This document shows, piece by piece, positions 39,009-64,000 of a DNA stretch of 64,000 nucleotides. Numbering within the stretch: the stretch's first letter is position 1; each line of letters starts with the position of its first letter. The stretch lies in NCBI GenBank assembly GCA_964016885.1, contig CAXHJY010001255.1, forward strand, positions 19,075 to 83,074. The letters are read 5' to 3'. A model generated the notes under the pieces. The model searched no databases. It worked only from the letters and a program-made list of their open reading frames with translations, and was not told where the DNA came from. The DNA is from Eledone cirrhosa (Eukaryota). The position numbers and the translations under genes are program-made.

Positions 39009-39225
39009 TGTATATATGTATATATATATATATATATATATATATATATAAACATATATATACATATATATATATATACATATACACTTACATATATATA
39101 TATATACATATATAACGGAAGAAATGTGGTAAGTAACCAGGTGGACCATAACGCACCAAAGTACTCAATATTTAGGGTAGTAGAGTGGGTAATAGAGTAG
39201 GACCCCTACGACCATATATGGAATT

Positions 39226-39321
39226 ACCCCTTGAGAAGCTCGGCTATTCAAATACCAGGATAAAAATTTTCCTTTACTCCAGAATTAGCCGTCGAAACGG
39301 CTTGAGCTCAGCTGTCGGGGT
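39226..39321 (+). ncRNA. Type I hammerhead ribozyme, U3:A8 core variant
   Basis: Stem I ACCCC/GGGGT; core TTGAGAA; stem II G..CGGCTA/TAGCCG..C; GAAA at 39294-39297; stem III ACGGCT/AGCTGT; GTC cleavage triplet at 39314-39316. Confidence 0.8.
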
Positions 39322-39334
39322 CCTACTCGTTCCT

Positions 39335-41948
39335 ATATACATATATATATATACATACATATATATACATACATATATATACATACATATATATATATAC
39401 ATATACATACATATACATACATATATATACATATACATACATATACATATATATACATATATATATATACATATACATACATATATATACATACATATAC
39501 ATACATACATATACATAAATATACACATATACATACATATATATATACATATACATACATATACATACATATACATACATATATATACATAAATATACAC
39601 ATATATATATACATATATACATACATATACATACATATATATATATACATATACATACATATATATATATACATATATATATATACATATATATATATAT
39701 ACATATATATATATATATATACATATATATATATACATATATATATATACATATATATATATACATATATATATATACATATATATATATACATATATAT
39801 ATATACATATATACATATACATATATACATATACATATATACATATATATATATACATATATATATATACATATATATATATACATATATATATATACAT
39901 ATATATATATATACATATATATATATACATATATAAATATATACATATATATATATATACATATATATATACATATATATATATATACATATATATATAT
40001 ACATATATATATATACATATATATATATACATATATATATATACATATATATATATATACATATATATATATACATATATAAATATATACATATATATAT
40101 ATATACATATATATATATATACATATATATATACATATATATATATACATATATATATATATATATACATACATATATATATATACATATACATATATAC
40201 ATATATATATATACATATATATATATACATATATATATACATATATATATACATACATATATACATACATATATATATACATATATATATATATACATAT
40301 ATATATACATATATATATACATATACATATATATACATATATATATATATACATATATATATACATACATATATATATATACATATATATATATATACAT
40401 ATATATATATACATATATATATATACATATACATATATATATATACATATATATATATATACATATATATATATATACATATATATATATACATATATAT
40501 ATATACATATATATATATATACATATATATATATACATATATATATATATACATATATATATATATACATATACATATATATACATATATATATATACAT
40601 ATATACATATATATATATACATATATATATATACATATATATATATACATATATATATATACATATATATATATACATATATATATATACATATATATAT
40701 ATACATATATATATATACATATATACATATATATATACATATATATATATACATATATATATAAACATATATATATATACATATATATATATACATATAT
40801 ACATATATATATATATACATATATATACATATATATATATACATATATATATATATATATACATATATATATATACATATATATATATATACATATATAT
40901 ATATACATATATATATATATACACATATATATATATACATATATATATATACATATATATATATATACATATATATATATACATATATATATATATATAT
41001 ACATATATATATATACATATACATATATATATATACATATACATATATATATATACATATATATATATACATATATATATATACATATATATATACATAT
41101 ATATATATACATATATATATATACATATATATATATATACATATATATATATACATATATATATACATATATATATATACATATATATATATACATATAT
41201 ATATATATACATATATATATATACATATATATATATATATATACATATATATATATACATATATATATATATATACATATATATATATATACATATATAT
41301 ATATACATATATATATACATATACATATATATATACATATACATATATATATATATATATATACATATACATATATATACATATATATATTCATATATAT
41401 ATATATATATATATATACATATATATATACATATACATATATATACATATATATACATATACATACATATATATATTCATATATATATATATATATACAT
41501 ATATATACATATACATATATATACATATACATACATATACATATATATACATATATATACATATACATATATATACATATATATACATATACATATATAT
41601 ACATATACATATATATACATATATATATACACACATATACATATATATACATATATATATACACACATATACATATATATACATATATATATACACACAT
41701 ATACATATATACACATATATATATACATATATATATATATACATATATATATATATATATACATACATATATATATACATATATATATATACATATACAT
41801 ATATATACATATATATATATATACATATATATATATATACATACATATATATACATATATATACATATACATATACATATATATACATATACATATACAT
41901 ATATATACATATATATATATATACATATGTATATATATATATATACAT
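39335..41948. repeat. ~2.6-kb (TA)n/(TACA) microsatellite array
   Basis: Direct reading of the sequence. Confidence 0.98.
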
Positions 41949-42620
41949 TTATTAAAATAACAGATTAAAGTTTAAGCAAAGAATCGCTGCTTTCACCCTT
42001 AACGGGATCTTCTGAAACTAACAAAGTCAATCTGTAAACGCAGAACTGGATATTTCAAAAAACGTTGCAACCGGAGCAAGACAGGAAGACGATACTTTGG
42101 TTCGTGGTAACGTTCGCTGGCAAAGAACGGGAAAAACCGAAAAAGAGGAGCGGTGAAAAACAATTACGCGCAAAAACAGAACCACGATTATGGTATAAAA
42201 GAGGTCGTAGACTAATGTTCTCTTAGGTGGTGCATAGAGACGTTCTCTGGCAATGAACGTAAAAACGAAGATAATAAGTCATATGTGGAGCGTGGAGAAC
42301 AATAGCACGCAAAGACAAAACCACGTAAATGGTATAGCAGAAGTCGTAGACTAAAATTCTAATTGGGAGACCAAATGAATCTCCGGTACAGAGTTAAGAA
42401 CAAAGTAAATAAATACAATACAGAAGTAATAGAAACAAATACGTACATACACAAGCATACGCAAAACCTTACCATAGGTATACAAAACCACGCACATATA
42501 GAATATGGTGTGTGTGTGTGTGTATGCTTGTGTACAAATAAATAAATAATTATATCAACGTTTTGCTCTACGGTTCTTATATATTTGATATATATTTTCC
42601 TTATCGAGCCCTCTTTGGAT
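41949..42620 (-). mobile_element. Complex island between arrays, probably a PLE terminal repeat, with a ~135-bp internal duplication
   Basis: Duplicated ACGTTC.CTGGCAA.GAACG and AACCACG...TGGTATA...GTCGTAGACTAA; minus-strand AATAAA at the array junction; degenerate HHR-like motifs. Confidence 0.4.
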
Positions 42621-61978: not shown

Positions 61979-62435
61979 ATATATATATATATACATACAT
62001 ACATACATACATACATACATACATACATATATATATATATATATATATATACATACATATATATATACATATACATACATATATATATACATACATATAT
62101 ATATACATATACATACATATATATATACATATACATATACATACATATATATATACATATACATATACATACATATATATATACATATACATATATATAC
62201 ACATATATATATACATATATATACACATATATATATACACATATATATATACATATATATACACATATATATATATATATTGTTATACTTTGGGAGGGTC
62301 ATGTTGCCAATAAGAAACACACGCACCAGTTGCTTTCACTTCAATTTGATTTAATATATATTTATAAATTTACAAATTTATAAATTTCTGGTTGGTTGGT
62401 TGGTTCCACAACCAGATAGTTGTTTATATATATAT

Positions 62436-62480
62436 AGTCATAGTTCTTTCGTCACACACTCTGTGACCTCTTCAGTGACT
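62436..62480 (-). ncRNA. Minimal type I hammerhead ribozyme (inverted copy)
   Basis: Reverse complement of 63720-63764. Confidence 0.8.
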
Positions 62481-63719
62481 GGGGATTTCTTTCTTCGTTT
62501 CTGTGCCTTTCCTTTCTTCTATCCTACGCCATTTTGTGTGTGTGTGGGTTGCGTGCTCAGTTTGCGCATGCGCCACATCCGGGTGTCTGTGTGTTTGTGT
62601 TCATTTTTCTATTTATATTTGTTTGTTTATTTATTTATTTATTGTTGGTTGGTTGTTTGTTCTATGTGTGTGTGTGTTTTCATTTTGTCTTGTGTGTGTT
62701 TTCATTTTGTGTGTGTTTTCAATTGTAAGTTGTTTGTTCTATGTGTGTGTGTGTTTTCATTTTGTCCTTAATTGTAAGTTGTGATGTTGCTGTTCCACTC
62801 ATATTTTCTATTTAATTTTGGTTTTAATTCTTTTATGCTTACTGCCTCTGTAATTTGCCTAAACATTGCGTCTTTCTTGTGTGTGGATTCTATTTTTATT
62901 TCTATGCTCTCTAATTTACCAGAGTGTAATGTTCATCAATACAACCCCTAGAGGCGAACTAGCCTACAAATTTAGAAGGGCCCTAAAGAAACATAATCTC
63001 AATATTAAGATAGTAGAAAGACCTGGTACCTCCGTAAAAACACTTATTAGCAAGACATACCCGTTCCAAAGACCCTCATGTATAGATAAGAAATGTATAA
63101 CCTGTAAAATAAGCCCCCATATTAACTGTAAAACTAGAAATGTAGTATATAGCATAAGATGTACTGAGGGACAATGTAGAAACAAAAATATAGTGTACAT
63201 AGTGAGACAGCTCGTAGTATAGGGGAACGAATAAATGAACACTGGCGAGACCTCCAAGATAGAACACAGGGGTAAATTAGAGAGCATAGAAATAAAAATA
63301 GAATCCACACACAAGAAAGACGCAATGTTTAGGCAAATTACAGAGGCAGTAAGCATAAAAGAATTAAAACCAAAATTAAATAGAAAATGAGTGGAACAGC
63401 AACATCACAACTTACAATTAAGGACAAAATGAAAACACACACACACATAGAACAAACAACTTACAATTGAAAACACACACAAAATGAAAACACACACAAG
63501 ACAAAATGAAAACACACACACACATAGAACAAACAACCAACCAACAATAAATAAATAAATAAACAAACAAATATAAATAGAAAAATAGAAAAATGAACAC
63601 AAACACACACAGACACCCCGGATGTGGCGCATGCGCAAACTGAGCACGCAACCCACACACAAACAAAATGGCGTAGGATAGAAGAAAGGAAAGGCACAGA
63701 AACGAAGAAAGAAATCCCC

Positions 63720-63764
63720 AGTCACTGAAGAGGTCACAGAGTGTGTGACGAAAGAACTATGACT
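63720..63764 (+). ncRNA. Minimal type I hammerhead ribozyme
   Basis: AGTCA-CTGAAGA-G-GTCACA(GAGTG)TGTGAC-GAAA-GAA-CTA-TGACT: 5-bp stem I, intact core, 6-bp stem II, 2-bp stem III; predicted cleavage after 63759. Confidence 0.8.
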
Positions 63765-64000
63765 ATATATATATAAACAACTATCTGGTTGTGGAACCAA
63801 CCAACCAACCAGAAATTTATAAATTTGTAAATTTATAAATATATATTAAATTAAATTGAAGTGAAAGCAACTGGTGCGTGTGTTTCTTATTGGCAACATG
63901 ACCCTCCCAAAGTATAACAATATCGGTTTCAACACACGATTTCAGATAAAGAATCTTGCTAAACAAATTCAGAAACGAAATATATATATATATATATATA

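Follow-up and report, generated by a model that had tools for sequence, protein, structure and literature searches.

Islands in giant (TA)n arrays of Eledone cirrhosa as probable truncated and fold-back copies of Penelope-like elements with putative hammerhead ribozymes

Penelope-like elements (PLEs) of the Hydra clade are defined by an RW-type motif, a DKT motif, a CxCx5C linker and the absence of CCHH residues; they carry an endonuclease (EN) of the GIY-YIG type at the C-terminus and a hammerhead ribozyme (HHR) in their pseudo-long terminal repeats (pLTRs), and they insert into (TA)n (Craig et al., 2021, PMC8557442). Their short length, generally <3 kb, and their canonical HHR represent a tendency rather than a strict criterion. 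According to the same source, nearly all Hydra families and the Naiads insert into (TA)n and Neptune has a microsatellite bias; two Naiads from octopus appear in its file S1 with a preference for (TA)n. Minimal or variant HHRs in PLE pLTRs often occur as opposite-strand pairs 100-700 bp apart, and a U3-A8 covariant is known from Schistosoma PLEs (Cervera and de la Pena, 2014, PMC4209133). Here we describe a stretch of 64,000 nucleotides from Eledone cirrhosa (assembly GCA_964016885.1, contig CAXHJY010001255.1, positions 19,075 to 83,074 of the forward strand), referred to as the window, which represents the final 64 kb of an 83-kb contig in a 3.0-Gb assembly and contains giant (TA/TACA)n arrays broken by complex islands. 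We read these islands as 5'-truncated or fold-back copies of six high-copy PLE families plus one scrap of a long interspersed nuclear element (LINE), which probably landed by insertion into (TA)n, and assign this reading a probability of about 0.85.

Repeat masking from 39.0 kb onward leaves islands numbered I1 to I8, with I3 starting at 47478 and I4 spanning 50924-53674; these two are joined in the following lines, which also give the extent of the others.

39002..63999, no strand: giant (TA/TACA)n arrays (39334-41947, 42619-47477, 53655-55655, 56904-59147, 59268-61639, 61972-62279), ~14.6 kb in total with short runs counted
39117..39333, + strand: I1, pLTR of a Hydra-type PLE in fold-back form; end and tail inverted at ~39117-39210, direct arm 39210-39333
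41948..42618, - strand: I2, Hydra-like PLE represented by its 3' untranslated region (UTR) and pLTR; a short piece of the tail is inverted at ~42562-42618
47478..53674, - strand: I3+I4, one 5'-truncated Hydra-type PLE of 6.2 kb; open reading frame (ORF), repeat-rich 3' UTR and pLTR
55656..56903, + strand: I5, 3' end of a Neptune/Nematis-type PLE; inverted tail 55656-55731, broken linker and GIY-YIG coding 55755-56331, pLTR
59148..59267, - strand: I6, 3'-terminal 120 bp of a LINE outside the PLEs; (AAAAGAGT)n tail, no hammerhead
61640..61971, no single strand: I7, pLTR fold-back of a PLE without clade label, from a 3.44-kb family unit
62280..63979, no single strand: I8, PLE of Neptune/Nematis type with an inverted arm (62280-62920), a direct arm ending at 63920 and a ~60-bp tail (63921-63979)

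Each island is a piece of a genome-wide family, and as judged from the sequences they appear to comprise six PLE insertions (three Hydra-type, two Neptune/Nematis-type and one without clade label) and the LINE scrap. An earlier note on this DNA had counted seven islands; the arrays are indeed interrupted, but the islands it listed are six insertions, since I3+I4 is a single element, and an eighth island at 59148-59267 had gone uncounted. Its statement that three islands encode PLE endonuclease holds. The anatomy of pLTR, tail and inverted copy agrees with that described in PMC8557442 and PMC3846280: as in other PLEs possessing an endonuclease, the pLTRs occur in partial tandems (spacings of 3,543, 3,444 and 6,140 bp in the families) with an inverted 5'-truncated copy and an optional tail, which measures ~80 (I1), 88 (I2), 60 (I8) or 32 (I7) bases. 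A single ORF with reverse transcriptase (RT) and C-terminal GIY-YIG domains is intact in the genomic copies L091, L327 and L096/L284, as read by motif for families other than I7 and, in the case of I2, from the C-terminal end. What had earlier been proposed to be non-autonomous ribozyme derivatives is better understood as having arisen independently, by truncation and fold-back, from autonomous families whose ORFs are intact.

The association with TA was quantified in 600 kb of position-sampled DNA (60 evenly spaced 10-kb stretches), where 31 of 35 PLE ends adjoin TA either directly or after the tail (I1 15/15, I2 4/5, I3 4/4, I5 1/2, I8 7/9; one sampled I8 end was excluded because of a too short flank). 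The ends of a common repeat resembling short interspersed nuclear elements (SINEs) are at TA in 5/57 and 9/74 cases and random positions in 6.2%, the difference between the PLEs and the 5/57 value being significant at p 4.7e-15. At loci chosen by family, the PLE ends meet TA in 33/36 (I1), 26/27, 22/23 (I3), 26/26 and 25/25 cases. The preference is shared by non-PLE elements: 27/29 ends of the LINE family of I6 (2/3 in the sample), 8/12 RTE ends after a TGA tail and the end of a 600-bp non-HHR element in 7/8 sampled copies are also located at TA. The idea that TA arrays serve as landing site of several PLE clades is thus supported, while PLE specificity or a special status of the giant arrays is not, and the comparison by which the earlier note had proposed to judge it came out half and half, with RTE and LINE ends frequently at TA and SINE ends rarely (5/57). 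The islands probably owe their position to the (TA)n insertion habit of several retroelement families of this genome and to the ~14.6 kb of (TA)n available at the locus.

That giant arrays are a landing zone of a special kind, dominated by PLEs, or a reservoir of ribozymes is very unlikely in our view, even if six of the seven insertions in the window are PLEs and a 500-bp array is found within 1 kb of 2/31 sampled hammerhead loci, compared to 1.7% of the sequence (p 0.10). The density of PLEs per TA base is lower in the window (6 insertions per 14.6 kb) than in ordinary short microsatellites (27 per 27.8 kb), none of 36 sampled PLE ends falls within 1 kb of a 500-bp array, and the TA run next to PLE ends has a median length of 26-59 bp; runs of at least 500 bp adjoin 8/164 PLE ends vs. 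9/31 LINE copies. In two other array-rich contigs (C1462 and C1184, 20 kb each, picked via one I7 and one LINE match), only 4 of 14 array-bounded islands are PLEs or carry hammerheads. The enrichment within 1 kb of arrays over 500 bp that the earlier note had proposed to test is thus not seen for PLE ends and not significant for hammerhead loci in the sample; the significant association of hammerhead loci is with any TA run (19/31, p 2.5e-6). We regard the giant arrays as one large target that different elements share, neither a PLE hot spot nor specific for ribozymes, and as a warning that such arrays gather LINEs as readily as PLEs.

Two further explanations concern the arrays themselves. 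The TA runs might have been made or lengthened by the elements as slippage tails instead of being prior targets, as the long 3' runs of the I6 LINE family (median 227 bp) and the TA/CA-rich sequence within the UTR of the I3 element would suggest; this is quite unlikely, because the outer ends of fold-backs meet TA with or without a tail (98/104 I1 arms), many truncated 5' ends of the I6 LINE family do so too, and TA has been published as a target preference (PMC8557442). Slightly less improbable, yet still unlikely, is a partial inflation of the giant arrays during assembly of a small unplaced contig, given that the window represents the end of an 83-kb contig and that no array over ~1.4 kb occurs in the 600-kb chromosome sample; against it, the arrays contain varied internal units, similar array-rich contigs hold different islands, and the islands belong to genuine families at any array length. 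The preferred reading as insertions into pre-existing (TA)n places hammerhead-bearing PLEs of a cephalopod-type genome in line with the published behaviour of their clades: TA targeting by PLE clades is already known, and the islands are new members of known clades behaving as known.

Two repeats precede the first island. An RTE-type LINE with RVT_1 and PHD matches occupies 36074-39001 (-), its truncated 5' end adjoining the first TA run, and a ~600-bp non-HHR repeat at 35502-36064, found twice between arrays in C1462, ends in a CxxC...H-like coding remnant which we take to be RTE-like.

The three Hydra-type families differ in how much of the element can be read. In the I1 family, the tandem unit measures 3,543 bp and its Hydra-type ORF is intact; the encoded protein is 42-47% identical to that of I3. 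Both ORFs (that of I3 being intact in L091) contain RWR, DKT and a CNCx5C linker and lack CCHH, and both families share the C-terminal GIY-YIG domain, the pLTR hammerhead and the insertion into (TA)n with the Hydra clade (PMC8557442). Of I2, only the last 36 codons are visible, which resemble the C-termini of I1 and I3, so that its placement is by this likeness. The families deviate from the clade as described in their larger units (3.5 and 6.1 kb for I1 and I3, vs. <3 kb), their longer tails (~80-90 vs. 30-40 bp), their non-canonical hammerheads (U3-A8 with a long stem II, U4A, and a 115-nt stem II, respectively) and their abundance, with thousands to tens of thousands of copies. The segments 47478-48438 and 50924-53674 are parts of one element, as all five genomic copies (L091-L095) are colinear over most of 47.5-53.7 kb at ~92-96% identity; the intervening TA/CA-rich stretch of 48.4-50.2 kb (48438-50185) is the element's own 3' UTR and not target array. 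The ORF of the window copy is frameshifted near 53350, with an open part from 53349 to 51385. Because 8 of 41 I3 pLTR matches tie for the top score, the family should be very young. By way of its UTR, it also spreads ~2 kb of TA/CA-rich sequence, itself a possible target. Another Hydra-type ORF, 45% identical to that of I3, is encoded in L096 (-, 3936-2029), and upstream of the window on the same contig (L098:817-1912) an I1-family fragment consisting of tail, 5' UTR and a broken ORF start lies between TA arrays, one of its arms starting exactly at the predicted cut site.

I5 and I8 represent Neptune/Nematis-type families. Both show a Cx4CxxC linker, a Cx4C motif lying between GIY and YIG, and CCHH-type residues, as found in the linker and C-terminal EN of Neptune; the Cx4CxxC and Cx4C motifs are common to Neptune and Nematis and therefore not diagnostic alone. 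With these PLEs they share the Cx2-5CxxC linker, the two Cys between GIY and YIG, the C-terminal EN, a minimal hammerhead in which A9 is followed by an additional base, and the microsatellite bias; the tail of ~60 bp differs, and Neptune and Nematis are not separated here. The two arms of I8 are 97.7% alike, and its terminal 23-mer has 28,019 exact genome matches. The islands had been described as unrelated apart from two Neptune-like copies, which needs amending: I5 and I8 are related families (72-78% DNA and 60% protein identity) rather than copies, and I1 and I3 are related at the protein level as given above. Outside the giant arrays, at 27887-28623, the window contains a third pLTR fold-back of this type, 78% identical to I5, with a TA run at its left and a decayed hammerhead at 28123 (-).

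The I7 family possesses an intact ORF of 879 amino acids elsewhere in the genome, with matches to RVT_1 (E 4e-11) and, just under the cut-off, to GIY-YIG (E 2e-4). An I7 fold-back with 97% identity and nearly the same junction occurs in C1462 (G000:C1462:642-972) and may have been copied together with array sequence; that C1462 represents the second haplotype of the window locus was ruled out, as the neighbours differ. The family of I6 was identified through copy L133 (RVT_1, E 1.8e-29) and presumably belongs to the CR1 group. The known octopus Naiads, Naiad_Obim and Naiad_Ovul (PMC8557442, file S1), are alike in preferring (TA)n and differ in having an N-terminal EN and no canonical HHR; no island with a readable EN position is a Naiad.

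Five islands carry hammerhead-shaped motifs, which are predicted to be putative ribozymes, and a sixth carries a related remnant:

39227..39320, + strand: I1, type I hammerhead fold; core UUGAGAA (39231-39237) with U3-A8 swap; stem II is long and stem III has 6 bp; cleavage predicted after GUC (39316/39317)
41965..42020, - strand: I2, type I hammerhead fold; core CAGAAGA (U4A) 42014-42008, U.U at 10.1-11.1, predicted cut 41974/41973
47673..47827, - strand: I3, hammerhead fold; 10-bp stem I, core CUGAAGA 47817-47811, predicted cut 47683/47682
56645..56684, + strand: I5, minimal hammerhead fold with core CUGACGA (56648-56654) and an extra U; stems I and II of 2 and 6 bp; cleavage predicted at 56681/56682
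61785..61833, - strand: I7, hammerhead-like remnant; UUGAU-[GGGC GUGA GCCC]-GAAA, without G8 and A9
63720..63764, + strand: I8, minimal hammerhead fold; core CUGAAGA 63725-63731, extra G, predicted cut 63759/63760

A strict descriptor (C3-G8 or U3-A8, U4 or A4, stem I of at least 4 bp) matches I1, I2 and both arms of I8, and none of 500 dinucleotide shuffles of each of these islands. The folds of I3 and I5, whose cores are canonical, are recognised after relaxing the stem II offsets and admitting a 2-bp stem I, respectively, and are then matched by 5/500 and 3/500 shuffles as well. An equal frequency of folds in shuffled islands, which the earlier note had named as an outcome telling against it, is thus not seen for I1, I2 and I8. 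I1 and I8 show all type I hammerhead features (the 3-8 pair, U4, G5, A6 and A9, GAAA, UH and three helices); I8 has a 6-bp stem II and a 5-bp stem I, and its mirror copy lies on the - strand at 62436 with the core at 62475. Stem II of I3 comprises ~115 nt with an imperfect base, its stem III is short and palindromic, and the minimum free energy (MFE) structure is a three-way junction. The folds reported at 39226, 47673, 56645 and 62436/63720 are accordingly retained; the one at 61801 (I7) lacks a canonical core and was missed by the descriptor, and the supposed decayed traces at 41949-42620 turned out to be an intact, family-typical fold in I2.

The deviating cores are properties of the families. 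CAGAAGA occurs in 40 of the 42 I2-family matches listed (not de-duplicated), so that the A at position 4 and the U.U in place of G10.1-C11.1 are family-fixed, while the remaining core and the helices are present. The I1-family cores, also counted without de-duplication, are UUGAGAA (48), UUGAUAA (5), CUGAGAA (5) and GUGAGAA (1). In I7, UUGAU leads directly into a 4-bp, GNRA-capped stem II, and the C3-G8 pair and A9 are missing; no canonical core, as expected of an ancestor, is present among its 1,806 family matches, and no PLE relative below 85% identity was found among the loci examined. Compared to the minimal metazoan PLE HHRs (PMC4209133), the motifs are alike in the CUGANGA core with an extra base, the long stem II, the short stem I, the short or palindromic stem III and, for I1, the U3-A8 swap known from Schistosoma, and unlike in the 5-6-bp stem III of I1 and I2, the U4A of I2 and the loss of G8 and A9 in I7; octopus is absent from the two supplement files of that paper which were searched. 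The titles and abstract openings of the papers found by search describe no U4A or G8/A9-less core, and Lunse et al. (2017) or one supplement file of PMC4209133 may hold such. The best 150 Rfam matches (548 weaker ones lie beyond) include no hammerhead family and are dominated by TA-repeat microRNAs. At 158-205 (+), the window contains a further hammerhead fold with a UUGAUAA core (U3-A8) at 165, which has a relative in L196.

The new part of the findings consists of tens of thousands of short I1-family fold-backs that hold half a hammerhead. The 3' half of the I1 hammerhead has 73,037 matches, whereas the 5' half, 65 bases upstream, has 4,676, a number which undercounts a divergent I1 subfamily. 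Of the 104 arms in 59 position-ordered loci, 95 are without the 5' half (95/110 with six left-out arms known to be full). The arm ends are concentrated between -45 and -24 relative to the predicted cut, and on the upstream side this cluster is bounded by a hard edge at about -41 to -45; the window's I1 copy, with its whole hammerhead, belongs to the minority type. Since 35 of 40 fold-back junctions are distinct, most should derive from separate events. We slightly favour the view that these products are strong-stop-like cDNAs reaching the 5' end of the transcript; the A at -41 lies in an initiator-like word, and PLE start sites are described as lying inside the pLTR (PMC6765202, PMC2377424). 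A less probable but serious alternative is that RT stalls at stem II or that the short fold-backs represent an amplified subfamily resembling miniature inverted-repeat transposable elements. In its favour, the end points coincide with the loop and the 3' strand of a strong stem, the mode at -37 is explicable by snap-back self-complementarity and one junction was found four times, while most arms pass through the 3' strand of the stem to the hard edge beyond, and the diversity of junctions argues against amplification. If the arms indeed end at the transcript start, that start would lie inside stem II, which would explain why the inserts hold half a hammerhead; most I1 inserts would then span the tail to the transcript 5' end only.

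Inserts starting at the cut site provide no support for cleavage in vivo. Such starts are seen in 0/52 I1 ends at loci not chosen by I1 score, 43 of which start between -44 and -25, in 3/54 ends at own-family loci, and within 3 bases of the cut site in none of the I2, I3, I7 and I8 inserts. Mass half-hammerhead fold-backs are not described in the titles and abstract openings of the papers found by search.

As a mechanism, we envisage that the GIY-YIG endonuclease nicks TA repeats, that reverse transcription begins at an internal site of the RNA (the end of the pLTR or the tail), and that cDNA synthesis terminates early, often with a snap-back, which would generate truncated and head-to-head inserts. 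The hammerheads would be carried passively in the pLTR and are predicted to cut the precursor RNA, that of I1 possibly as a monomer and those of I3, I5 and I8 more likely as dimers or with the help of proteins. For the Anolis Poseidon element PAc (Frangieh et al., 2024, PMC11167929), two internal RT starts giving rise to end and tail, nicking of AT-rich targets and insertion in vitro without HHR cleavage have been reported; it belongs to another clade, and mass short inserts ending inside the hammerhead are not reported in the part of that work available. Internal initiation, tail origin and nicking may be carried over to the families described here by analogy. The hammerhead seems dispensable for spread, because a family lacking G8 and A9 has reached ~1,800 copies.

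Several points weigh against this interpretation. The hammerhead descriptor was composed after the motifs had been seen; the hammerhead-constrained folds of I1, I2, I8 and I7 lie 2.7-5.7 kcal/mol above the MFE, and those of I2 and I7 are without stem I. The PLE clades were assigned by motifs, not by a tree, and Pfam gives no match for the Hydra-type or Neptune-type proteins. The PLE share of the window, 6/7, exceeds the 4/14 of the two other array contigs, which the model leaves to chance. As target-site duplications are unreadable in TA, we infer, rather than observe, that TA was the prior target and not an element-made tail. Finally, a 5' edge of equal sharpness is not seen in the other families, nor is a shared initiator-like edge.

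Hammerheads appear to be common genome-wide, since the 60 sampled stretches contain 42 descriptor matches, compared to 0-2 in five block shuffles, which by rough extrapolation would correspond to a load of ~200,000 motifs, comparable to the 126,247 reported for the axolotl (PMC7229834). The Octopus vulgaris repeat annotation lists 31 Penelope-like families, and the word "hammerhead" does not occur in the available part of that source (PMC13282606). The short islands share their non-coding, HHR-bearing and PLE-linked nature with non-LTR retrozymes (PMC7229834; bioRxiv 10.64898/2026.07.22.740005); these consist of tandem 170-400-nt repeats, unlike the single or inverted pieces of ORF-bearing, autonomous families in the window. 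Tandem units of ~310 bp, each with a CUGAUGA hammerhead and a palindromic stem III, were found elsewhere in L227, L234 and L285 and represent such retrozymes.

The interest of the locus lies in these side findings, i.e. the family-fixed odd cores, the half-hammerhead fold-backs and the high hammerhead load. Tentatively, and with less confidence than in an even chance, we propose that a genome with some 200,000 hammerheads harbours PLEs that shed ribozyme function yet stay active, as would be indicated by half-hammerhead palindromes mapping a promoter in stem II, a U4A family and a G8/A9-less family that is either non-cutting or adopts an undescribed fold. With regard to the role of the PLE hammerhead, cores in the young families whose ORFs are intact extend from the canonical form to one without G8 and A9, and tens of thousands of natural short products map the start and stop points of RT, so that the families offer a direct comparative test of the need for a ribozyme and of the PLE transcript start. 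Many more hammerhead families are present in L192-L251 (e.g. L200, L213, L214, L232, L233, L239 and L246). The window also contains a GC-rich segment (55-57%) at 29000-31500.

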